DNA of 44,446 nucleotides from Escherichia phage vB_EcoM_SHAK7704, in sequence record OR594181. The stretch is one strand, 5' to 3'. Under the pieces are notes generated by a model that worked only from the letters and a program-made list of their open reading frames with translations, searched no databases and was not told where the DNA came from. The translations under genes were made by a program, and so were the position numbers. Below, piece after piece: positions 9,766 to 39,662 of this stretch (its first letter is position 1; each line of letters opens with the position of its first letter).

Positions 9766-9861
9766 ATGGGTAGTCGCTTCTTAGTCTGGATAGGTTAAAC
9801 CTAGGAGATTCTCTTGAGTCTCCTATAATGTAACCTAACTAACTAAATGAGGATTAATAAC

Positions 9862-10218
9862 ATGGCTATGTCTAATATGACTTACTCTCAGGTTTACAAC
9901 ACCGCTCATGCTGCATTAGTTGAACGTATCTGGGATGATGCTATTGATTGTATCGATAACGCACATGATGCAATCCATGAGGTGGCGGGTAGTGCTGTAC
10001 CAATCTATTATGCTGACATCTTCTCGGTGATGGCCAGTGAAGGCATCGACCACTTCTTCGAGGATTCTGGCTTAATGCCAGACACTAAGGATGTGACGGT
10101 CGTACTACAAGCCCGTATTTATGAACAACTCACCATTGATTTATGGGAACGTGTTCAAGATATGATTGATGCGTACATCGATTCCGCTGAGGATTCAGAA
10201 GAAGAGGAGGAAGAATAA
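9862..10218 (+). CDS. ocr: Ocr-like DNA-mimic anti-restriction protein (T7 gene 0.3 homolog)
   Basis: MAMSNMTY...[15 protein letters not shown]...[13 protein letters not shown]...[15 protein letters not shown] with acidic C-terminus, closely matching T7 Ocr as recalled; start at ATG 9862. Confidence 0.85.
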
Positions 10219-14351: not shown

Positions 14352-14367
14352 GTCTCACATGTGAGAC
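14352..14367 (+). repeat. 16-bp perfect palindrome GTCTCACATGTGAGAC (copy a)
   Basis: Directly upstream of the promoter at 14370. Confidence 0.8.
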
Positions 14368-14387: not shown

Positions 14388-14543
14388 GATAGCCGTCGGA
14401 GACGGGAAAGAAAGGGAAGATAAAGGATATAAAGGAAGTAATAGGTATTAAAGGTTATATAGGTTATCTAGGAATACCTAGGAATACCTATTACCTTCTT
14501 CCTTCCTCTTATTACCACTTAGAGGAAGGGCAGACCTAGGTTG
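14388..14543 (+). other. Origin-like repeat region between two phage promoters
   Basis: AT-rich; AAAGGA iterons; tandem ctaggaataccta/ggaataccta; inverted repeat GGAAGTAATAGGTATT...AATACCTATTACCTTCC. Confidence 0.45.
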
Positions 14544-14559
14544 TCTCACATGTGAGACT
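14544..14559 (+). repeat. 16-bp palindrome GTCTCACATGTGAGAC (copy b)
   Basis: Directly upstream of the promoter at 14564. Confidence 0.8.
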
Positions 14560-14611: not shown

Positions 14612-14740
14612 ATGCGTAACTTTGAGAAGATGGCCCGTAAAGCTAACCGTTTTGACATAGAAGAAGGGCAGAAGAAAGGCAAGAAGCTGAATAAACCTGT
14701 CCGTGATCGTGCATCTAAACGCGCTGCGTGGGAGTTCTAA
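14612..14740 (+). CDS. Small basic protein (42 aa), T7 gp1.1-like by position
   Basis: MRNFEKMARKANRF..., Lys/Arg-rich; first gene after RNAP; GGAG RBS; the gp1.1 likeness is from memory. Confidence 0.5.
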   Translation: MRNFEKMARKANRFDIEEGQKKGKKLNKPVRDRASKRAAWEF

Positions 14741-14743
14741 GTT

Positions 14744-14962
14744 ATGGCTAAATACAGAATCAAGACCTGTTTAAATAGTCACGGGCAAGAGTGCTACATA
14801 GTGCAACGTAAAGTATTAGGCTTAATATGGGTCACGTGTATGATGCCTATTGGCTATACTGATACAGAGGCTATCTTCTGCACCGAAAGGGATGCAAAGA
14901 AGTTTATCTCTGAGCGTAGAAAAGCTGACTCTTACCAACCCAGAACTATTAAGGTGAACTAA
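14744..14962 (+). CDS. Hypothetical protein
   Basis: 72 aa; stop overlaps the primase/helicase start. Confidence 0.5.
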   Translation: MAKYRIKTCLNSHGQECYIVQRKVLGLIWVTCMMPIGYTDTEAIFCTERDAKKFISERRKADSYQPRTIKVN

Positions 14963-16950
14963 TGGCTATTATTAATAACATCCCGTGCCCTGCCTGCCAG
15001 AAGAATGGACACGATAAATCCGGCAATCATCTCATGATATTTGATGATGGTGCTGGCTATTGTAACCGTGGTCATTTCCACGATAACGGCAAGCCTTACT
15101 ATCATAAGCCAGAAGGTGGCATCGAGATCACCGAGTTGCCTATTACTGGCAATATCAAATATACACCTTCTCAATTCAAAGAGATGGAGAAGGAAGGGAA
15201 GATAAGCGACCCTAAGTTACGCGCCATCGCACTTGGTGGTATGCGTATGAAAGACCGATGGGAGGTCATGAATGAGCAAGAAAGGGCAGACCAAGAAGCA
15301 GAGTGGAAACTTGATGTTGAATGGTTCCTCACGCTTAAGCGTAAGAATCTTGTTTCCCGACACATTCGCGGCGACATTTGCGCATTGTATGATGTACGTG
15401 TCGGACACGATGAAGATGGTAGAGTCTCACGGCATTACTATCCACGCTTCGAGAAAGGTGAGCTAGTAGGCGCTAAGTGTCGCACATTACCTAAAGACTT
15501 TAAGTTTGGTCATTTAGGTAAACTCTTTGGTATGCAAGATCTTTTCGGTATGAATACTTTGTCTCACGTGTTAGACAAGGGAAGACGAAAGGATTGCTTG
15601 CTTATTGTAGGTGGTGAACTTGATGCACTAGCAGCACAGCAAATGCTCCTTGATTCTGCCAAGGGTACTAAGTGGGAAGGCCAGCCTTACCATGTATGGT
15701 CTGTCAATAAAGGTGAGTCTTGCCTTGAAGAGATAGTACAGAACCGTGAACACATCGCCCAATTTAAGAAGATTATATGGGGTTTTGATGGCGACGAGGT
15801 GGGGCAGAAGCAGAATCAGCAAGCGGCTCGCCTGTTTCCTGGCAAATCCTATATCCTTGAATACCCTTCTGGTTGCAAAGATGCTAACAAGGCATTGATG
15901 GCTGGCAAGGCTAAAGAGTTTGTTGATGCTTGGTTTAATGCCAAGTCATCTGATGAAGTCTTTGGTAGCCAGATTAAATCTATCGCATCTCAAAGGGATA
16001 AGCTCAAGGCTGCACGTCCAGAGCAAGGACTATCATGGCCTTGGCCTAAGCTGAACAAGGTAACGCTAGGTATTCGTAAGAACCAGCTTATCATTGTAGG
16101 TGCAGGTTCTGGTGTAGGTAAGACTGAGTTCCTCCGCGAAGTGGTTAAACATCTCATTGAAGAACACGGTGAATCTGTAGGCATCATTTCTACAGAAGAC
16201 CCAATGGTCAAGGTGTCCCGTGCTTTTATCGGCAAGTGGATTGATAAGCGTATTGAGTTACCGCCAACCAACGACCCGAAAGAAGACGGATACCGTGAGG
16301 TGTTCGACTACACCGAGGAAGAAGCTAACGCTGCCATTGATTATGTAGCTGATACAGGAAAGCTATTTGTGGCTGACCTAGAAGGCGATTATTCTATGGA
16401 GAAGGTAGAGCAAACTTGCCTAGAGTTTGAGGCTATGGGCATTTCTAATATCATCATTGATAACTTAACGGGGATTAAATTAGATGAGCGTGCTTTTGGT
16501 GGGAAGGTTGGTGCACTTGATGAATGCGTCAAACGAATTGGTACTATCAAAGACCGACATGCGGTTACGATTTTCCTTGTCTCTCACCTTACACGTCCTC
16601 CGGCAAACCGTACCCAACACGAAGAAGGTGGCGAAGTTATCCTTTCTGACTTCCGAGGCTCAGGCGCTATCGGATTCTGGGCATCTTACGCCTTGGGGAT
16701 TGAGCGTAATACAAGAGCTGAAACGCTTGATGAAAGGACTACCACGTACATCTCGTGTGTCAAAGACCGCGATCAAGGTATCTACACTGGAACCAAGGTC
16801 ATGCTTAAAGGTGACATTCAGACCGGACGTTTGATGGAACCACAAGCCCGTACTAAGTCATTTGATACAGGTGAAGCAAGGCAGCAAGAGGTGCCTGATT
16901 TACCGGACACTATAGAAGAGACAAACTTTGAAGATGAACAGGAGTTTTAA
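14962..16950 (+). CDS. DNA primase/helicase (T7 gp4-like)
   Basis: 662 aa; N-terminal Cys4 zinc motif CPAC...C..GH; Walker A GAGSGVGKT; acidic C-terminus ending in Phe (EDEQEF). Confidence 0.9.
   Translation: MAIINNIPCPACQKNGHDKSGNHLMIFDDGAGYCNRGHFHDNGKPYYHKPEGGIEITELPITGNIKYTPSQFKEMEKEGKISDPKLRAIALGGMRMKDRWEVMNEQERADQEAEWKLDVEWFLTLKRKNLVSRHIRGDICALYDVRVGHDEDGRVSRHYYPRFEKGELVGAKCRTLPKDFKFGHLGKLFGMQDLFGMNTLSHVLDKGRRKDCLLIVGGELDALAAQQMLLDSAKGTKWEGQPYHVWSVNKGESCLEEIVQNREHIAQFKKIIWGFDGDEVGQKQNQQAARLFPGKSYILEYPSGCKDANKALMAGKAKEFVDAWFNAKSSDEVFGSQIKSIASQRDKLKAARPEQGLSWPWPKLNKVTLGIRKNQLIIVGAGSGVGKTEFLREVVKHLIEEHGESVGIISTEDPMVKVSRAFIGKWIDKRIELPPTNDPKEDGYREVFDYTEEEANAAIDYVADTGKLFVADLEGDYSMEKVEQTCLEFEAMGISNIIIDNLTGIKLDERAFGGKVGALDECVKRIGTIKDRHAVTIFLVSHLTRPPANRTQHEEGGEVILSDFRGSGAIGFWASYALGIERNTRAETLDERTTTYISCVKDRDQGIYTGTKVMLKGDIQTGRLMEPQARTKSFDTGEARQQEVPDLPDTIEETNFEDEQEF
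16898..16915 (+). promoter_or_regulatory. Phage RNAP promoter ATTTACCGGACACTATAG inside the primase/helicase 3' end
   Basis: 18-mer lies in coding sequence and encodes ...PDTIEE... Confidence 0.6.
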
Positions 16951-17124: not shown

Positions 17125-17148
17125 GCTTGTCTCACATGTGAGACAGGC
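17125..17148 (+). terminator. Palindrome-family hairpin with T-rich tail (copy c)
   Basis: GCTTGTCTCACATGTGAGACAGGC followed by tcttatt. Confidence 0.45.
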
Positions 17149-18350: not shown

Positions 18351-18503
18351 ATGACTAAGTTTACTATGCAAGACCTCATTAAATTACGTGATGAAATAGA
18401 ATCACCGGAAGTTAATACAGAGTTTCACTACATTGATCCACGAGATAAACGAGAGATTCCTGATTATCAGATTGAGACGGAGTTAATGTATGAAGATTAT
18501 TGA
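18351..18503 (+). CDS. Small acidic protein (50 aa)
   Basis: Not in the ORF track; GGGAGG RBS; overlaps the DNA polymerase start. Confidence 0.4.
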   Translation: MTKFTMQDLIKLRDEIESPEVNTEFHYIDPRDKREIPDYQIETELMYEDY

Positions 18504-21036
18504 TTGGAAGAAGGAAGCAGAAGGCCGTATCCTAGTGATGGATGCAGAGGCTAAAGGCCTGCTGAATGCTATCCGCTATGGTCATCGTGAAGATGTGCAT
18601 ATCATTTGCTGCATGGACTTGCTTACTACCGAGGAGTTTCTCTTCTTTGACCCGTATGAGATGCGTGACCCTGAAGCAAGAGAACACCTGAAGGAATGGG
18701 AAGGTCATCAAGATGGTGACTTGGTTGATGGTGTTAACTTCCTGAAGCACTGTGAAGCTATTGTGTCGCAGAACTTCCTAGGGTACGACGGCCTTCTATT
18801 TGAGAAAGCATTCCCTGATATCTGGAAAGGATTTAACTATACCGAGAGACGCGGCAAGGGCAGACTCCGCGCTGACCTGTGTCCGGTACGCGTCATGGAT
18901 ACGCTGGTCATGAGTCGCCTGTTAAACCCCGATAGACGCCTCCCTCCGCAAGCATACGCCAAAGGCATGGGTAACGTCGCCCCTCACTCAATTGAGGCGC
19001 ACGGCATCCGTATAGGCCGTTATAAGCCGGAGAACGAGGATTGGTCTAAGCTAACTGACCACATGGTTCACCGTGTACGGGAGGACGTGGCGATAGGCCG
19101 TGACTTGTTCCTCTGGCTCTTTAACGGGGAATGGATGGAGCACAAACGCCGTGGCGTGAATAAACGCACTGGCCTAGGTATTGAGACAGCCTTCCACATG
19201 GAGTCCATTGTGGCGCTGGAGATGAGCCGTCAGGCCGAGCGTGGATTCCGTCTGGATATAGATAAAGCATTAGCACGATGCGAGGAATTGGACGCTAAGA
19301 TTGATGAGACAGTCGCAGCGTTCCGTCCGCACATGCCTATGCGTATCAAGTCTAAACCTTTTAAACCGGAAGAAAAGAATGAAGTATGCCAACGCGCAAA
19401 TGAGTATGGAGCTAGCAACAATATACCTACTGTCCTTGACCCCTCTCACTTTCTTCACGCAGAGAGACGAGGAGATCGCAAGACAGTATGGAGTGTCACT
19501 ACTAAGTCTGGTGATTGGTCGGCTAGCGTCAAGAAAGACTTTCCTCACCTTAGAGGAAACCGTAATGACACGCCAAGCATCAAGTGGATTGGCGCTTACT
19601 CGCCTGTTACTTTCGAAGAGATTCCCTTGGGTAACAGGGATACAGTTAAGCAAGTGCTTTATGATTATGGATGGAAAGGTGTTGAATTTAACGATACCGA
19701 GCAAGCGCATCTCGATGAGCATGGCGTATTACCCAAGCCTTGGAGTGGGAAGATAAATGAAAAGTCCCTTACTTTATGGCAAGAGAGAGCCGCACGTGAA
19801 GGTAAAACAGTCCCTGATTGGTGCTTGGGTATCGCTGCATGGTACATACTCGTATCCCGTCGTGGTCAGATCCTCAACCGTGGTGACGTTGAAGCCTTCG
19901 ACCAGAAGGGGGTGTGGCCTTCGCAAGCTGGTATACGAAAGTGTCGCGGCCTTGTACCTGTAGCATTTAACAAGGAGTTAGGAATCAATGCGCAGCAATA
20001 CTACGAAAGGTACGGATGCTGGCCTACGTCAGACAAGGATGACGGAGAATGGCGTGTGCCAGCTATTGCTATTAGTATTGGAACTTCTACGTTCCGTATG
20101 CGTCATCGTAACGTGGTTAATATTCCTGCCCGTGGTTTGTATCCTTTACGTGATTTATTCATAGCCGGTAAAGGTAAGCTAATCCTTGGTTGTGATGGTG
20201 CTGGTCTTGAACTACGTGTACTGTCTCACTTCATGAATGACCCTGAATATCAAGATATTGTACTGCATGGTGACATTCACACCCATAATCAAATGAAGGC
20301 TGGTCTTCCTAAGCGTGACATGGCGAAGACATTTATATATGCCTTCCTATATGGGTCTGGTATAGCTAACCTTGCAGCAGTATGTGGTGTTACTGAGGAA
20401 GAAATGGAGGAAGTTGTGGCAAGATTTGAGGTTGAACTACCATCTCTTGCACGCCTTCGTGAGAATGTTATCGCACAAGGTAACAAGTTTGGCTACCTAC
20501 AAGCACCTGATGGTCATTGGGGTCGCATCCGTATGTCTGGTGGTGAACTTAAAGAGCACACTATGCTTAACGTACTACTCCAGATGACGGGTTCTCTGTG
20601 TATGAAATACGCATTGGTCAGAGCGTTTGCAGTGATGCGCAAGGAAGGTGTGGCCTTAGATAGTATGGGAAACCCTTGCGGTATAGCTAACGTGCACGAT
20701 GAAATCCAGATGGAAGTCCCTGAAGATGAGGTCTTGTATCTCAACTACGACTTGCCTTTCACCTTAGAAGGGTTCGAAACAGAGAAGGCTGCTGTGAAAG
20801 CAGTGTTCGATGCAGAGGAGAAACGTGTTCATGTGGATTCTGAAGGACGTATGTGGTCTGCTGCAAATCTCGTTAGCGTTGATGCTGATGCTGGTGTACT
20901 TCATTGCCAGCGTCGTTATCACCGTGCAGGGCATATCATTGCCGATGCAATGACTTGGGCTGGTCATTATTTGAAGATGCGTTGTCCGATGGCAGGTGAG
21001 TATAAGATTGGTGCAAGCTGGAAGGAAACACACTGA
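18490..21036 (+). CDS. DNA polymerase, family A
   Basis: 848 aa; motif A DGAGLELRVLSH, motif B K...FIYAFLYGSG, motif C VHDE. Confidence 0.95.
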   Translation: MKIIDWKKEAEGRILVMDAEAKGLLNAIRYGHREDVHIICCMDLLTTEEFLFFDPYEMRDPEAREHLKEWEGHQDGDLVDGVNFLKHCEAIVSQNFLGYDGLLFEKAFPDIWKGFNYTERRGKGRLRADLCPVRVMDTLVMSRLLNPDRRLPPQAYAKGMGNVAPHSIEAHGIRIGRYKPENEDWSKLTDHMVHRVREDVAIGRDLFLWLFNGEWMEHKRRGVNKRTGLGIETAFHMESIVALEMSRQAERGFRLDIDKALARCEELDAKIDETVAAFRPHMPMRIKSKPFKPEEKNEVCQRANEYGASNNIPTVLDPSHFLHAERRGDRKTVWSVTTKSGDWSASVKKDFPHLRGNRNDTPSIKWIGAYSPVTFEEIPLGNRDTVKQVLYDYGWKGVEFNDTEQAHLDEHGVLPKPWSGKINEKSLTLWQERAAREGKTVPDWCLGIAAWYILVSRRGQILNRGDVEAFDQKGVWPSQAGIRKCRGLVPVAFNKELGINAQQYYERYGCWPTSDKDDGEWRVPAIAISIGTSTFRMRHRNVVNIPARGLYPLRDLFIAGKGKLILGCDGAGLELRVLSHFMNDPEYQDIVLHGDIHTHNQMKAGLPKRDMAKTFIYAFLYGSGIANLAAVCGVTEEEMEEVVARFEVELPSLARLRENVIAQGNKFGYLQAPDGHWGRIRMSGGELKEHTMLNVLLQMTGSLCMKYALVRAFAVMRKEGVALDSMGNPCGIANVHDEIQMEVPEDEVLYLNYDLPFTLEGFETEKAAVKAVFDAEEKRVHVDSEGRMWSAANLVSVDADAGVLHCQRRYHRAGHIIADAMTWAGHYLKMRCPMAGEYKIGASWKETH

Positions 21037-21318: not shown

Positions 21319-21336
21319 ATTTACTGGACACTATAG
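21319..21336 (+). promoter_or_regulatory. Phage RNAP promoter ATTTACTGGACACTATAG
   Basis: Exact consensus. Confidence 0.7.
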
Positions 21337-22166: not shown

Positions 22167-22973
22167 ATGGCACGTGGTGATTTTGATTTTGGTGCTCAGG
22201 TTACTAAAGCTGAAGGTAAAGTATTTAAGAACCCTGAAGTTGGTGATCATGAAGCAGTAATCTCTGGCATCATTCATGTTGGTTCCTTCCAAGATATCTT
22301 TAAGAAAGGTAATACCACTGAAGTTAAGAAGCCAGCAAACTTTGTTCTTGTTAAGATTATCCTGATGGGTGACGACGATAAGAATGAAGATGATTCTCGC
22401 ATGGAACAATGGATGGCTGTGCCTCTGAAGTCTGGTGATAAGGCAACGCTGACTAAGTTCCTGAATGCAGTTGACCCTAAAGAGTTGCTGGGTGGCTTCG
22501 ATGATTTTATCGGTGAATGTCTGACTGCAACTATGGTTGGCTCTGGTGACAAGAATGATGATGGTACTTTCAAGTATGTTAACTGGAAAGGCTTTGGCGG
22601 TATGCCTGATAAGTTGAAGAAGCTTGTACTGGCTCAGGTAGAAGAGGAAGGTCTGTCTATGACAGGTCATATCACCTTCGACAAGCTGACCAAAGAAATC
22701 CTTGATGACATCCCAGCTAACTTGGTACGTCAATACTTCCTGAATGAGACACCTCGTGGTAAGAACCTGTCTGTTGCTGGCTCTCACGTAGAAGCTATTA
22801 TCAAAGCTGCTCGTGAAGAAGACCCTGAATGGAAGAAGGCTAAGAAGAAAGATGAGGAAGATGCTACCCCAGCTAATCGTAAATCTCTGGATACTGGTGA
22901 GTCTGTTCCACAGGAAGTACCTGAAGCAGAAGATACTCCTGCACCGGAGATGGATGAGGACGCGGAATATTAA
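22167..22973 (+). CDS. Putative single-stranded DNA-binding protein (T7 gp2.5-like architecture)
   Basis: 268 aa; AGGAG RBS; acidic C-terminal tail ending in an aromatic residue (...EMDEDAEY); in the replication cluster. Assigned by architecture, not by alignment. Confidence 0.5.
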   Translation: MARGDFDFGAQVTKAEGKVFKNPEVGDHEAVISGIIHVGSFQDIFKKGNTTEVKKPANFVLVKIILMGDDDKNEDDSRMEQWMAVPLKSGDKATLTKFLNAVDPKELLGGFDDFIGECLTATMVGSGDKNDDGTFKYVNWKGFGGMPDKLKKLVLAQVEEEGLSMTGHITFDKLTKEILDDIPANLVRQYFLNETPRGKNLSVAGSHVEAIIKAAREEDPEWKKAKKKDEEDATPANRKSLDTGESVPQEVPEAEDTPAPEMDEDAEY

Positions 22974-22982
22974 GGAGAAAGG

Positions 22983-23201
22983 ATGAAAGTACAAATCGTA
23001 ACCCTGCACTGCAAGAAAGGAATTACAACTCTTGGCGGCAACACTTTTCACTCCTTCTCTGAAGGGGACACATATGCCGACCTGCACTACATCTGGCGCG
23101 ACGGACAGCACGTGGTGAACTACAGCGATCCAGCTACGGGGAAACGCCACGGCGTATCGCTTCCGGCGCATGACATTGCTCAGGTGAACACAGTTTTATA
23201 A
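22983..23201 (+). CDS. Hypothetical protein, locally GC-rich
   Basis: 72 aa; strong AAGGAGAAAGG RBS; GC-rich codons unlike neighbours. Confidence 0.55.
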   Translation: MKVQIVTLHCKKGITTLGGNTFHSFSEGDTYADLHYIWRDGQHVVNYSDPATGKRHGVSLPAHDIAQVNTVL

Positions 23202-23202
23202 A

Positions 23203-23218
23203 GTCTCACGTGTGAGAC
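23203..23218 (+). repeat. 16-bp palindrome GTCTCACGTGTGAGAC (copy e)
   Basis: Perfect palindrome; directly upstream of the promoter at 23234. Confidence 0.8.
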
Positions 23219-23233
23219 AAATCGGTGTCCGGT

Positions 23234-23251
23234 ATTTACTGGACACTATAG
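23234..23251 (+). promoter_or_regulatory. Phage RNAP promoter ATTTACTGGACACTATAG
   Basis: Exact consensus. Confidence 0.7.
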
Positions 23252-23306
23252 AAGAGAAGAATTTTAATCGGCGATAATGCCATAACCAACAAAAGGAGAA
23301 TTTAAT

Positions 23307-23678
23307 ATGTTCAAGATTGAAACTATCGTAAACCGTGTTGTTAAAGGTGCTGCTCTGGTATCCGTTGAGTCTTTCATTATCGTCGATGAAGCTGATCAAC
23401 TGGTAGCTGGTACTAAGGCTTACGATACCCGTGAAGAAGCTCAGGCTAAGATTGACAGCATGGGTAACTTCGCTGCTGGTCTGGAGTTCGCTCGTGCTTG
23501 CTTCCCTGAGCAGGCTGACAAAGCCCAGATCGGGAAGGCTAACATCGTAGCTGAATATCTGGATTGGATTGCTGCTGGTAAACCAGTGAAAGAAGTTAAA
23601 GCTGCTGAAGAAGCTGAAGCTCCTGCAGTAGAAGTGTCTGCACCGGAAGCTCCGGTTAGCGAAGAGGAAGAGTTTTGA
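23307..23678 (+). CDS. Small acidic protein, apparently highly expressed
   Basis: 123 aa; own promoter and terminator; AAAAGGAG RBS; C-terminus ...VSEEEEF. Confidence 0.65.
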   Translation: MFKIETIVNRVVKGAALVSVESFIIVDEADQLVAGTKAYDTREEAQAKIDSMGNFAAGLEFARACFPEQADKAQIGKANIVAEYLDWIAAGKPVKEVKAAEEAEAPAVEVSAPEAPVSEEEEF

Positions 23679-23746
23679 TAATAGCAGGTGTAGCCTCTGT
23701 TAGTCCTAGTTGACTATCACGCTCACCTCATCTAATGCCCTGTCTG

Positions 23747-23773
23747 CCTTAGTGTAGGCAGGGTCTTTTGCGT
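23747..23773 (+). terminator. Intrinsic terminator, same family as the one after the capsid gene
   Basis: GCCCTGTCTGCC-ttagtg-TAGGCAGGG then TCTTTTG. Confidence 0.6.
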
Positions 23774-23795
23774 AATAGTTATTGGAGAATGAATT

Positions 23796-24068
23796 ATGCC
23801 GACTATTGAATCTCGAATTGAACTGGACATTAGCTACAATGCAATCACCAGACAGTATATTGGGGTTGCCTATGATTACAAAACTGGTGAGAAGCTAGTG
23901 GAGGTGAGACAATGGGATGACTATTGGTTAAGACAGAACCTCCATGATGCGGTGTCCTCCTTCTTGAAGGAGTGGCCTACATGCGACCAAACTTCGACTT
24001 CGGAGCTACAGTATCGGAAGACAATAATCTCATCCTGTGGCCGACTGAAGGTAATCGAATCGCTTTAA
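23796..24068 (+). CDS. Hypothetical protein (3' end overlaps exonuclease)
   Basis: 90 aa; GGAG RBS; last ~29 codons overlap the exonuclease in another frame. Confidence 0.45.
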   Translation: MPTIESRIELDISYNAITRQYIGVAYDYKTGEKLVEVRQWDDYWLRQNLHDAVSSFLKEWPTCDQTSTSELQYRKTIISSCGRLKVIESL

Positions 24069-25009
24069 TAGATGCTGATATGTTACCCTACATCGTAGGT
24101 TATACAATCAGTGACATGACTTATTTACGAGCCACAACTCGTGTTAAGTCAGGACAAGTCCCATCAATCAAAGATACACCTGAGTGTAAGCAAGCATGTG
24201 ACCGTGTGAACTCCTTGCTTAACTCTTGGGTGTATGCAGCAGAGTGTGATGCAGCTAAGCTATTCATGACGAAATCAGAAGCTAACTTCCGTGTCCGCCT
24301 AGCATTCACAAAGCCTTATAAGGGTCAACGTAAGACCGAGAAGCCTCCGTTCTTCTATGAATTGCGAGAGCATCTCTTAGAGGTTCACGGTGCAATCTTG
24401 GCAGATGGAGAAGAAGCTGATGACCTCATGAGCATCGCACAATGGGATAGCCACCGCCGCTTCCTGCAAGATACAGGTAACGAGTTCCCTATCGGTAGTC
24501 CAGAGCATAAAGCATTCTCTGATACTTGCATCGTTTCCTTAGATAAGGATTTGATGATTGTTCCCGGTTGGCATCTTCAGCCGGGTCAAGAGAAGAAGTG
24601 GGTAGAGCCTATGGGCTGGCTTGAGCTATGCCGTAAGGCTAATGGGCAAGTCAAAGATCTAAAAGGTGCTGGCCTCATGTTCCACTATGCACAGATGATT
24701 ATCGGTGATGATATTGATAACTATGCTGGCATACCAGGTCGTGGTGCTAAATATGCCTATGATCTTCTCAAAGATTGTAAGACAGAGAAAGAGTTGTACA
24801 TGGCAGTGCTGGGTGCTTACAAGGCTAAGTTCGGGCATGGACAAGTTAAAATTAAGAATTACCGAGGTGGTTATCGTATCGGCAAAGCCTTTGACCTTAT
24901 GCTTGAATGCGGTCGCTTAGCTCACATGGCTAGGTTCAAAGGTGATATATGGCGAGCCGATAAGAACCCAATCTTGTGGGGAGATGATGCGGAATGGTTA
25001 GCAAATTAA
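23981..25009 (+). CDS. 5'-3' exonuclease (T7 gp6-like, FEN family)
   Basis: ATG 23981 with AAGGAG 9 nt upstream (track starts at GTG 23972); IALIDADMLPY... N-terminal motif. Confidence 0.8.
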   Translation: MRPNFDFGATVSEDNNLILWPTEGNRIALIDADMLPYIVGYTISDMTYLRATTRVKSGQVPSIKDTPECKQACDRVNSLLNSWVYAAECDAAKLFMTKSEANFRVRLAFTKPYKGQRKTEKPPFFYELREHLLEVHGAILADGEEADDLMSIAQWDSHRRFLQDTGNEFPIGSPEHKAFSDTCIVSLDKDLMIVPGWHLQPGQEKKWVEPMGWLELCRKANGQVKDLKGAGLMFHYAQMIIGDDIDNYAGIPGRGAKYAYDLLKDCKTEKELYMAVLGAYKAKFGHGQVKIKNYRGGYRIGKAFDLMLECGRLAHMARFKGDIWRADKNPILWGDDAEWLAN

Positions 25010-26947: not shown

Positions 26948-27064
26948 ATGACTTGTCCTAATTGTGGAAGTGAAGAAACAGAACATGTAGTTATGTCAGA
27001 TACTTATCATTTCTACTTCTGTCATAGCTGCGACACCACCATTGAAGAGGAAGAAGCTGTATGA
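26948..27064 (+). CDS. Small zinc-ribbon protein (38 aa)
   Basis: Not in the ORF track; CPNC...CHSC; ATGA overlap with the ligase start. Confidence 0.4.
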   Translation: MTCPNCGSEETEHVVMSDTYHFYFCHSCDTTIEEEEAV

Positions 27065-28008
27065 ATATATTCCAATTCCTAGGTCTTCCAGAAGACCACC
27101 GCAATCACCCATTCATGCTGGTGAAACATCGCGGTGAAGTACCTGAGAAGAAATTAACTTTTCCATGTTATGCACAGGTAAAACGAGATGGTATATTTAG
27201 TGCTGTGGTTGTTCGCAACGATGGTGACGTTGGTATCTTTGGACGCACTGGAAAGAAACTGGCTAACACGGAAACCTTGGAAGAATCTTATTCAGCTTTC
27301 CCTACTGGCATTTATCTCGGTGAGTTGCAATCTATGGCTATTGATGTCTACCTTGAAGCACTTTCTGGAGTAGTTAACCCTAACCGCACTGAGCCACTAG
27401 ATTTCATAGGCCAGCAGATTAAAGACAACCTGTATATTGACTTCTTCGATATGTTAACTATTAAGGCATTCCATGATGGATTCACTGATGTTTCTTATCT
27501 CAAACGTTACGATGCTTTACATCGTCGCATCGGCGCTCATCTTAGCGGGTACAACGCTATCCTTCCTATTACTCCTTGCCATAATGAGCGAGAAGTTGAA
27601 GCGTTTGCGCAAGAGCAAATAGACGCAGGCCGAGAGGGTGCTGTGTTTAAACTGGACTGTGATTATGAAGCAGGCCACAAAGGTTATCGTCAGACTAAAG
27701 AAGTCCGTAAGGTAACTTATGACCTTACTTGTATTGGCTTTGAAGAAGGCAAAGGTAAGTACAAAGGTAAGGTAGCTAACCTCATTTTCAAATGGAAAGG
27801 GGGCAAGACAATCAAAGCTATGTTAGGTAAAGGGTGGACTCATGCAGATGCAGAACAGATGTTCCACGATATTAAACATGGTGGACGATTGAATGTCATT
27901 GGTAAAATCTTTGAAGTAAAAGGTCTTCAGGATTCAAGCAAGGGCAACATTCGTCTGCCCAAAGCGGGAGAATTAAGACATGACAAAGATGAACCAGATT
28001 TCTTTTGA
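27061..28008 (+). CDS. ATP-dependent DNA ligase
   Basis: 315 aa; KRDG adenylation motif (KxDG). Confidence 0.75.
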   Translation: MNIFQFLGLPEDHRNHPFMLVKHRGEVPEKKLTFPCYAQVKRDGIFSAVVVRNDGDVGIFGRTGKKLANTETLEESYSAFPTGIYLGELQSMAIDVYLEALSGVVNPNRTEPLDFIGQQIKDNLYIDFFDMLTIKAFHDGFTDVSYLKRYDALHRRIGAHLSGYNAILPITPCHNEREVEAFAQEQIDAGREGAVFKLDCDYEAGHKGYRQTKEVRKVTYDLTCIGFEEGKGKYKGKVANLIFKWKGGKTIKAMLGKGWTHADAEQMFHDIKHGGRLNVIGKIFEVKGLQDSSKGNIRLPKAGELRHDKDEPDFF

Positions 28009-28195
28009 TAGCATGAAGGCAACTCGTGCAGTTGAGGTAGCAGAAGCTATCTTTGAAACTTTATCCTGTGGCATGGAATTGCCGTATACTTTACTGGCTG
28101 ATGCAGAAGAGCTTGGTCTTTCTGTAGAAGCTATCCAAGAGAAGGTTGAAGAACTCTATGGTACAGACGAAGAAGAAACCGACGATTTCATTTGA
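27980..28195 (+). CDS. Hypothetical acidic protein
   Basis: 71 aa; overlaps the ligase 3' end. Confidence 0.45.
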   Translation: MTKMNQISFDSMKATRAVEVAEAIFETLSCGMELPYTLLADAEELGLSVEAIQEKVEELYGTDEEETDDFI

Positions 28196-31553: not shown

Positions 31554-32762
31554 ATGAGCACCCCGAATAACCTGACCAACGTTGCAGTCTCCGCTTCCGG
31601 CGAGGTAGACAGCCTTCTCATTGAGAAATTCAATGGCAAGGTAAATGAGCAGTACCTGAAAGGTGAGAACATCATGTCCTACTTTGATGTTCAGACTGTT
31701 ACTGGTACTAACACTGTAAGCAACAAATATTTGGGTGAAACCGAGTTGCAGGTTCTGGCACCGGGGCAGTCTCCGGCTGCAACTTCTACTCAGGCCGATA
31801 AAAACCAACTGGTAATCGATGCCACTGTTATTGCTCGTAACACAGTTGCTCACCTGCATGATGTACAGGGTGACATTGATAGCCTGAAGCCGAAGCTGGC
31901 TACTAACCAAGCTAAGCAGCTTAAGAAGATGGAAGATGAAATGCTGATTCAGCAGATGCTGCTGGGCGGTATTGCTAACACTCAGGCTAAGCGTACTAAT
32001 CCGCGTGTTAAAGGCCATGGCTTCTCTGTCAACGTAGAAGTTGCAGAAAGTGAAGCACTGGTCAACCCGCAGTATGTAATGGCGGCTGTAGAGTTTGCTC
32101 TTGAGCAGCAGCTTGAGCAGGAAGTAGACATCTCTGATGTGGCTATCCTGATGCCGTGGCGCTACTTCAACGTACTGCGTGATGCAGACCGTATCGTTGA
32201 CAAGAGCTACACCATTAGCCAGTCTGGTGCAACCATTCAGGGTTTTGTTCTGTCTTCTTACAACTGCCCTGTTATCCCGTCTAACCGCTTCCCTAAATTC
32301 TCTGCGGGTCAGAAACATCACCTGCTGTCAAATGAAGACAACGGTTATCGTTATGACCCGACTGCAGAAATGAATGGCGCTATCGCTGTACTGTTCACAG
32401 CTGACGCTCTTCTTGTTGGCCGTTCAATTGATGTAACAGGTGATATCTTCTATGAGAAGAAAGAGAAGACCTATTACATTGACACCTTTATGTCTGAAGG
32501 TGCAATCCCTGACCGTTGGGAGGCAGTGTCTGTAGTTACCACCAAGCGAGAGACAAATGGCACGCCTACCTCTACTGCAACTCAGGCTGCACAGCATACT
32601 CAGGTTCTGAACCGTGCACAGCGTAAGGCGGTGTATGTCAAGAGCGCTAACCCGGCAGGTGCTTTCGCTGCTGCTAGCTTGTCTGCTGAAGACTTGGTTG
32701 CTGCTGTACGTGCAGTGATGGCTAATGACATTAAGCCGACTGCAATGAAACCTGCTGAGTAA
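31554..32762 (+). CDS. Major capsid protein
   Basis: 402 aa; strong AAGGAGG RBS; own promoter and downstream terminator; highly-expressed-type codon usage. Confidence 0.85.
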   Translation: MSTPNNLTNVAVSASGEVDSLLIEKFNGKVNEQYLKGENIMSYFDVQTVTGTNTVSNKYLGETELQVLAPGQSPAATSTQADKNQLVIDATVIARNTVAHLHDVQGDIDSLKPKLATNQAKQLKKMEDEMLIQQMLLGGIANTQAKRTNPRVKGHGFSVNVEVAESEALVNPQYVMAAVEFALEQQLEQEVDISDVAILMPWRYFNVLRDADRIVDKSYTISQSGATIQGFVLSSYNCPVIPSNRFPKFSAGQKHHLLSNEDNGYRYDPTAEMNGAIAVLFTADALLVGRSIDVTGDIFYEKKEKTYYIDTFMSEGAIPDRWEAVSVVTTKRETNGTPTSTATQAAQHTQVLNRAQRKAVYVKSANPAGAFAAASLSAEDLVAAVRAVMANDIKPTAMKPAE

Positions 32763-32769
32763 TACCTAT

Positions 32770-32805
32770 GCCCTATCTACCTTGCGTAGGTAGGGTTCTT
32801 TTGTT
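32770..32805 (+). terminator. Intrinsic terminator after the capsid gene
   Basis: CCCTATCTACC-ttgcg-TAGGTAGGG stem then TTCTTTTGTT; homologous to the terminator at 23747. Confidence 0.7.
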
Positions 32806-39638: not shown

Positions 39639-39662
39639 GCTTGTCTCACATGTGAGACAGGT
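39639..39662 (+). terminator. Palindrome-family hairpin with T-rich tail (copy f)
   Basis: GGCTTGTCTCACATGTGAGACAGG followed by tctttat. Confidence 0.45.

Follow-up and report, generated by a model that had tools for sequence, protein, structure and literature searches.

Gene 18 of Escherichia phage vB_EcoM_SHAK7704 (sequence record OR594181; "the window" hereafter means the whole stretch of 44,446 nucleotides (nt) that was analysed) forms a compact transcription unit of its own, running from a consensus promoter of the phage RNA polymerase to a terminator of the type found after the major capsid gene. Strong indirect evidence from sequence comparisons suggests that its product, the small acidic protein gp18, is very highly expressed and is kept so by selection in phages of eight host genera. 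As for its role, we put at about even the chance that gp18 is an abundant protein of the replication/recombination module whose T7-style tail docks on a receptor used by other tails as well, probably the DNA polymerase. A sequence-only reading of the window had described gene 18 as a self-contained promoter-to-terminator unit, and every element that it described was found in place. The parts of the unit, together with the terminator that resembles its own, are the following:

23234..23256, plus strand: phage-RNA-polymerase promoter of the SP6/K1E type, positions -17 to +6, ATTTACTGGACACTATAGAAGAG, with the inferred start G at 23251
23251..23306, plus strand: 5' untranslated region (UTR) of 56 nt, with the Shine-Dalgarno sequence AAGGAG at 23293-23298 and the ATG at 23307
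23307..23678, plus strand: gene 18, 123 amino acids (aa), isoelectric point (pI) 4.4, C-terminus SEEEEF, PHROG 4429, ranked first of 52 open reading frames (ORFs) by codon adaptation index (CAI)
23307..23591, plus strand: alpha/beta domain, residues 1-95 (AlphaFold2 with a diverse alignment; predicted local distance difference test score, pLDDT, about 90)
23592..23675, plus strand: disordered acidic tail, residues 96-123, net charge -9, ending in SEEEEF
23676..23684, plus strand: triple in-frame stop TGA TAA TAG, read from the sequence
23737..23770, plus strand: intrinsic terminator, with an 11-bp stem (6 G-C pairs), a 6-nt loop and CTTTTG
32770..32802, plus strand: terminator paralogous to that of gene 18, following the major capsid gene (31554-32762), recognised by sequence alignment

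The 801 bases around gene 18 are 99.8% identical to Escherichia phage K1E, and about 100 phage records match the region, mostly Escherichia, Vectrevirus and Salmonella SP6-like podoviruses. Judged from its sequence, the window is a complete, circularly permuted K1E/K1-5-like genome (genus Vectrevirus, Autographiviridae), and its ORF 23307-23678 is gene 18 of K1E and K1-5 and gene 20 of SP6. Relatives were compared in a set of eight genomes from eight host genera (the window, SP6, Erwinia Era103, Vibrio AS51, Pseudomonas Nerthus, Ralstonia Reminis, Marinomonas CB5A and Aeromonas P220), and the gp18 family itself in a diverse set of 26 representatives. Over its full length (residues 1-123) gp18 matches the profile of PHROG 4429, a family of unassigned function, with E = 2.3e-58. 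At 90% identity the family falls into 211 clusters and at 50%, in a set of 1.84 billion representatives, into 28; its members are annotated as "hypothetical" or left blank in all 70 of the phage records listed. A lack of conservation had been named in advance as telling against the sequence-only reading; instead, the family is present in 212 phage records (Escherichia, Klebsiella, Vibrio, Salmonella, Proteus, Pseudomonas, Erwinia and others) and the cassette is kept in eight phages.

By its sequence, the element at 23234-23256 is a promoter of a phage RNA polymerase of the SP6/K1E type, the +1 of which (23251) we take to be placed as in the SP6 promoter. Its core, GACACTATAG, is common to 11 sites in the window, and shuffled versions of the window gave no match to the promoter pattern. 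Compared with the consensus of the 11 sites, the gene 18 promoter has no mismatch at the strongly conserved positions from -17 to +5 and one mismatch further downstream, and in this respect the capsid promoter (31483) and the site at 21319 are its equals; the gene does have a consensus promoter of its own, as the sequence-only reading had proposed. A sigma-70 promoter for gene 18 was also considered and was rejected, as the region contains 25 sigma-70-like matches against 24.2 expected, none of them within 23201-23306. The ribosome-binding site, likewise described earlier as strong, consists of AAGGAG at a spacing of 8 nt from the gene 18 ATG. The 5' UTR is almost identical in SP6, and a promoter-like element lies 5' of the gp18 homologue in most of the eight genomes, where that of AS51 is annotated as a promoter.

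At the other end of the unit, the terminator hairpin also forms in the predicted fold of the whole transcript. At 23737-23764 its sequence aligns with that of the capsid terminator (32770-32796) along the stem and both flanks (ATGCCCT.TCT.CCTT..G.GTAGG.AGGGT), the stem differences between the two are compensatory (G-C to A-T, G.T to A-T), and each of the two has an identical stem-loop in SP6. The aligned sequence, the compensatory changes and the SP6 counterparts together indicate that the two terminators are conserved paralogues, which bears out the homology that had been claimed for them. In every one of the eight genomes the gp18 homologue has a strong stem-loop and T-run behind it, within about 45 nt. 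Between the gene 18 stop and the terminator (23676-23736) the window has a second predicted hairpin within some 55 nt, and in SP6 the terminator starts 5 nt past the stop (SP6 14725-14735).

Codon usage was assessed with two indices. With E. coli weights after Sharp & Li 1987, the CAI of gene 18 is 0.643, whereas the capsid gene reaches 0.531 and gene 16 0.514; the SP6 homologue, with 0.625, also comes first in its genome. The second index takes each phage's own capsid gene as its reference and is independent of the E. coli weights, and by this measure the gp18 homologue is top among the non-capsid genes in all eight phages. When synonymous codons were resampled from genome-average usage, at most 8 of 5000 simulations reached the observed value (z = 3.1-6.1). 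The codons are thus of the highly expressed type, in agreement with the sequence-only reading. A promoter of capsid quality, a terminator paralogous to that of the capsid gene and the top codon adaptation lead us to infer capsid-like expression of gp18, an expectation already present in that reading and now strengthened by the recurrence of the codon result in SP6 and in six more distant relatives.

The arrangement has consequences for the genes that follow. No promoter core site was found between 23257 and about 26402, where the next phage promoter lies, so that genes 19-22, including those for the exonuclease and endonuclease VII, need read-through of the gene 18 terminator. Transcription would thus start at a capsid-quality promoter and stop for the most part at a capsid-type terminator some 520 nt further on, with only the read-through RNAs reaching genes 19-22. 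Gene 19 (23796-24068, 90 aa, PHROG "DNA repair protein") shares about 90 nt with the beginning of the exonuclease ORF (23972-25009), and both of these genes depend on that read-through. In T7, gene 10 and its terminator T-phi offer a parallel, as they likewise combine a consensus promoter with a strong ribosome site, with optimal codons and with a terminator of the stem-loop/U-run kind that has to be read through for the downstream genes; unlike that arrangement, the gene 18 cassette is monocistronic, encodes a non-structural protein of 123 aa and lies in a block of DNA-metabolism genes.

Structure prediction, which the sequence-only reading had suggested as a check, gave for gp18 a confident alpha/beta domain of about 95 residues followed by a disordered tail. 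A run with close homologues was poor (pLDDT 58), and for this reason the run with the diverse alignment A2 (pLDDT 82) was the one used. In this model the domain consists of a beta-hairpin (residues 3-13 and 16-26) and three helices (42-51, 55-65 and 71-89). In the tail the means of ten-residue blocks drop from a pLDDT of 75 to 46-53, and residues 108-120 fall below 50. Among close relatives there are 83 invariant alignment columns, almost all of them within residues 1-95, and the length of the tail varies. In the diverse set A45 and A78 are invariant, and K37, G58, K77, N79, A82, W87 and G91 are nearly so.

Searches with the domain returned little. Foldseek detected no match to the gp18 model among solved structures at E <= 0.001, and the only match at that threshold in a viral structure library was a member of the gp18 family. 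Pfam (with gp18 alone and with all 26 members), NCBIfam and PDB sequence searches yielded chance-level matches only, for gp18 as for gp16. The possibility that gp18 is an OB-fold protein like T7 gp2.5 was rejected, since neither an OB fold nor sequence homology to gp2.5 was found. One public record names a close homologue of gp18 as DUF1508, a domain that itself has no known function. An identity with the DUF1508/YegP-like family (PF07411, UPF0339) had no statistical support: none of the 26 members matches PF07411 even at E <= 10, and the profile comparison with hhalign reached a probability of 0.18 with E 0.33. In that comparison the beta-hairpin and first helix of gp18 (residues ~1-52) align in the same register as they do by eye, but gp18 differs from DUF1508 in having two extra helices and the tail.

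The tail of gp18 is better recognised by its end than by its length. In the 26 representatives the linker is variable in length and sequence and always acidic, and 22 of them carry a [DE]-x-F tip, such as SEEEEF, EEETF, EEVDF, EVEEF or DDENF; the terminal Phe lies in the last 3 residues in 21 members and in the last 7 in one more (P0147). Another ORF of the window, 9847-10218, also encodes 123 aa and ends in ..SEEEEEE; it is the counterpart of the "ocr-like anti-restriction" gp5 of SP6 (62% identity) and is unrelated to gene 18.

The same type of tip is found on other proteins of the replication module. In all eight genomes the primase-helicase, gp16 and gp18 end in an acidic tail with an aromatic tip (..E-x-F/Y type), and the DNA polymerase and exonuclease have no such tip in any of the eight. 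The tips are as follows:

Window (K1E-like): helicase EDEQEF, gp16 DEDAEY, gp18 EEEEF
SP6: helicase TQEFNG, gp16 DEDAEY, gp18-like EEEEF
Vibrio AS51: helicase DDTQEF, gp16-like DEEQEF, gp18-like EDEEF
Ralstonia Reminis: helicase ADEEF, gp16-like DADEEF, gp18-like TEGAF
Marinomonas CB5A: helicase ASQEF, gp16-like NESEF, gp18-like SEESF
Aeromonas P220: helicase EEVEF, gp16-like TEEEF, gp18-like ADESF
Erwinia Era103: helicase GASEF, gp16-like DDKEF, gp18-like AGEDF
Pseudomonas Nerthus: helicase EKETY, gp16-like EEQEFGE, gp18-like EETFE

A systematic scan of the window detected six tail-positive ORFs, every one of them within the block of DNA-metabolism genes at 14.9-28.2 kb. Besides gene 18 they are:

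14962..16950, plus strand: primase-helicase, 662 aa, ending in ..EDEQEF
18351-18503: ORF of 50 aa before the DNA polymerase, ending in ..LMYEDY
22167..22973, plus strand: gene 16, 268 aa, ending in ..DEDAEY, PHROG 862, with the second-highest codon adaptation in the window
27061-28008: DNA ligase, ending in ..DKDEPDFF
27980-28195: ORF of 71 aa after the DNA ligase, ending in ..EEETDDFI

The tip of the DNA ligase recurs in SP6, AS51 and CB5A. The likeness of SEEEEF to the acidic, Phe-terminated tails of T7, pointed out in the sequence-only reading, has therefore gained in weight, given its retention in 22 of 26 family members and the presence of the same tip type on helicase and gp16 in eight genomes.

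In T7 the corresponding tails end in ..NDTDF (gp4) and ..DEDGDF (gp2.5), and the T7 DNA polymerase has a unique loop to which both bind (Hamdan et al. 2005, as cited in PMC10359462). The K1E-like system resembles that of T7 in that several replication-module proteins of one phage have a disordered, strongly acidic C-terminus with an aromatic end, and gp18 would resemble gp2.5 in its high abundance. It differs in that T7 has no third small tail-bearing protein, whereas here gp18 is one, with a non-OB domain. No homology was detected between gp18, gp16 or gp17 and the T7 class II proteins, and for gp19 nothing beyond a short local alignment with T7 gp5 (E 0.002) was obtained. The SP6-like DNA polymerase (18490-21036) has, at the position of the thioredoxin-binding loop of T7 in a weak alignment, an insertion of about 100 residues that is longer than the T7 loop and has conserved Arg/Lys. 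Bacterial SSB, the protein that binds single-stranded DNA, provides a second comparison, as it is made up of a folded domain, a disordered acidic linker and an acidic tip ending in Phe (PMC3936761). gp18 shares with it the folded N-terminal domain, the low-complexity linker of varying length and sequence and the conserved acidic/aromatic tip; unlike SSB, its domain is alpha/beta rather than OB, and its E-x-F tip lacks the Pro of ..DDDIPF.

The genomic setting of gene 18 is also conserved. In all eight genomes it lies between the DNA polymerase and the exonuclease, that is, in the DNA replication module, in an order that runs from DNA polymerase through small ORFs, a gp16-like gene (~260 aa) and sometimes a small gp17 to gp18, and then to exonuclease and endonuclease VII. 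This order is common to Molineuxvirinae, Colwellvirinae and unclassified relatives. Members of the gp16 family are present in 215 phage records, compared with the 212 of gp18, with an almost identical spread of hosts (Pseudomonas, 15 vs 12), and the near-equal counts and host distributions indicate that genes 16 and 18 are inherited together. Of the eight genomes, four have gp16 in second place for codon bias. Its invariant motif N-x-DGT-x-K-x-VN aligns with residues 99-109 of T7 gp2.5, with an hhalign probability of 0.2 that is not significant; we regard gp16 as a candidate for the gp2.5-like DNA-binding (SSB/annealing) protein of SP6-type phages.

Taken as a working model, gene 18 would be a monocistronic unit of the phage RNA polymerase, very highly expressed within the replication/recombination block. 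It would supply in near-capsid amounts a protein made of an alpha/beta domain of ~95 residues and a disordered acidic tail of ~28 residues with a Glu-x-Phe end. The presence of the same tip on the primase-helicase and gp16 in every genome examined, and on the ligase in several, suggests a single receptor shared by these tails, the likeliest being the phage DNA polymerase, the thumb of which would carry the large basic insertion at the position of the T7 tail-binding loop. The presumed abundance of gp18 would have it act in stoichiometric amounts on intermediates of replication and recombination rather than through a simple 1:1 contact with the replisome. It may be a second, non-OB coating or escort protein alongside gp16, or it may compete for the tail receptor and so regulate access to it.

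Several observations weigh against this model. The "front basic patch" of T7 (K587-R591) is missing from the SP6-like polymerases, and the thumb region aligns poorly. A capsid-level abundance exceeds what a simple polymerase contact needs. The globular domain of gp18 is not an OB fold, according to both the AlphaFold model and the structure search, and is mildly acidic (median pI 5.2), and homology of gp16 to gp2.5 is not detectable. Four of the 26 representatives lack the terminal Phe, among them divergent metagenome members that end in ..APEAT (L013 244-594), ..DVEVA (L014 680-1045) and ..TSSTD (L015 86-427), with no sign of a frameshift. Co-variation of tip loss between gp18 and the helicase or gp16 could be followed on contigs of about 1 kb with two informative cases, L013 and L014, and in both the adjacent upstream gp16-like protein retains its tail (..DDSKDF and ..DEDEEF) though the gp18 tip is lost. 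The four members without Phe, and the retention of the gp16 tail in both readable cases, imply that the tip of gp18 is not indispensable to the family. Finally, no characterisation of the gp18 family was found in the literature on gp18 of K1E and K1-5 and gp20 of SP6, on the proteomics and transcriptomics of SP6-like phages or on DUF1508, and the literature searched yielded no biochemical study of the replication machinery of SP6/K1E-type phages.

A broader version of the docking model, which we regard as possible though rather doubtful, would see in these tips a "tail code" of the SP6-type replisome, in which helicase, gp16, ligase and small accessory proteins share one E-x-F receptor. In it gp18, as a hyper-abundant, free-standing tail carrier with a novel fold, would buffer or regulate access to that receptor, or would hijack the host hub of SSB tails as a mimic of the SSB tail without an OB domain. 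Another explanation is directed at the host, in which gp18 is an excess decoy of the C-terminal tip of SSB (..DDDIPF in E. coli) that occupies the tail pockets of ExoI, RecQ, PriA, RecG or the chi subunit of Pol III, or the DNA-binding groove of host SSB itself, thereby shutting down host replication restart and repair and protecting phage DNA. The architecture of gp18 is that of bacterial SSB (PMC3936761), its very high predicted abundance fits the titration of abundant or multiple targets, and with a non-OB domain the tail may be its sole active part. We nevertheless consider a decoy unlikely. The same tip is present on the phage's own helicase, gp16 and ligase, which favours a receptor within the phage system; its form, E-x-F, has no Pro such as that of D-I-P-F, though the SSB tips of the hosts are conserved; and the most conserved part of gp18 is its globular domain, to which nearly all of the 83 invariant columns of the close relatives belong, so that the domain must have a specific task.

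A further explanation is that gp18 coats single-stranded DNA on a non-OB fold and gp16 is a strand-annealing/recombination protein, the two activities of T7 gp2.5 being split between them. The capsid-level codon bias, the SSB-type tail and a recombination-like cluster as its setting, with exonuclease and endonuclease VII as neighbours, agree with this, and the nearly invariant K37, K77, N79 and W87 could contact bases and phosphates; an acidic core would be no bar, given that the core of T7 gp2.5 has a pI of 5.8. On the other hand, the model of a beta-hairpin and three helices has no significant likeness to solved folds that bind single-stranded DNA, and gp16 is the better gp2.5 analogue by size and shares the N-x-DGT..K motif, if not significantly, so we hold this split to be improbable too. 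We find it very hard to see in gp18 a DNA-mimic inhibitor of nucleases or restriction comparable to T7 gp5.9 or Ocr, despite its small size, acidity, presumed high expression and position directly upstream of the exonuclease gene, which is that of the RecBCD inhibitor gp5.9 in T7: the charge resides in the disordered tail (net -9) and not on a folded surface (domain net -3), and the genome has an Ocr-like gene at another place, the window counterpart of the ocr-like gp5 of SP6 being the separate ORF 9847-10218. Moreover, gp18 has no homology to gp5.9 or to the other T7 class II proteins compared (a set that left out Ocr), and RecBCD is rare in the cell and does not call for synthesis at capsid level. 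The least credible account is that capsid-like expression reflects capsid-like stoichiometry and that gp18 has a part in virion structure or assembly, whether as a capsid decoration, as a protein inside the particle or as an aid to the scaffold. The terminator type and promoter quality that it has in common with the capsid gene, and its top codon bias, would fit; yet in every genome examined the gene is found among those for DNA metabolism, some 5 kb upstream of the structural block, and its type of tail is otherwise found only on replication proteins, both of which speak against a structural role. Nor is gp18 known to feature in the published virion structures and protein lists of K1E, K1-5 and SP6.

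Upstream of the gene 18 unit there is one further conserved element:

23203..23218, plus strand: perfect palindrome of 16 nt, GTCTCACGTGTGAGAC, between the gene 17 stop and the promoter, one of five copies

The copies, of the form GTCTCAC[A/G]TGTGAGAC, are located at 14352-14367, 14543-14558, 17129-17144, 23203-23218 and 39643-39658; all five are intergenic, and three sit 3-16 nt upstream of phage promoter sites. The SP6 copy before gene 20 reads GTCTAACGCGTTGGAC, with compensatory changes that show the hairpin to be preserved. In Vibrio AS51 the same hairpin is found directly upstream of the gp18 promoter, and in Pseudomonas Nerthus the same palindrome lies between the gp17-like and gp18-like genes, ~270 nt upstream of the gp18 homologue. 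An Rfam search of 22900-24000 gave no match. The palindrome at 23203-23218 could be a candidate RNA-processing or 3'-end hairpin that gives transcripts from upstream promoters a defined end, and the five-copy element as a whole is possibly a processing site of the RNase III type or a protein-binding site.

Phages of the SP6/K1E type are used as a source of RNA polymerase, in therapy and in capsule targeting. The gene most strongly codon-optimised in these genomes, above the capsid gene in the window and across eight host genera, is one without an assigned function. T7 already offers examples of replication-module proteins with an acidic tail and an aromatic tip. As far as our searches show, four features are previously unreported: a domain without a significant match among solved structures, the top codon optimisation in eight host genera, a dedicated cassette with a consensus promoter and a capsid-type terminator, and the occurrence of the same tip on helicase, gp16 and ligase. 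The compact combination of promoter, UTR and terminator could be put to use as a module for high-yield expression with polymerases of the SP6 type. For the biology of these phages, the shared tails suggest that recruitment through acidic tails may be a general organising principle of podovirus replisomes rather than a peculiarity of T7.

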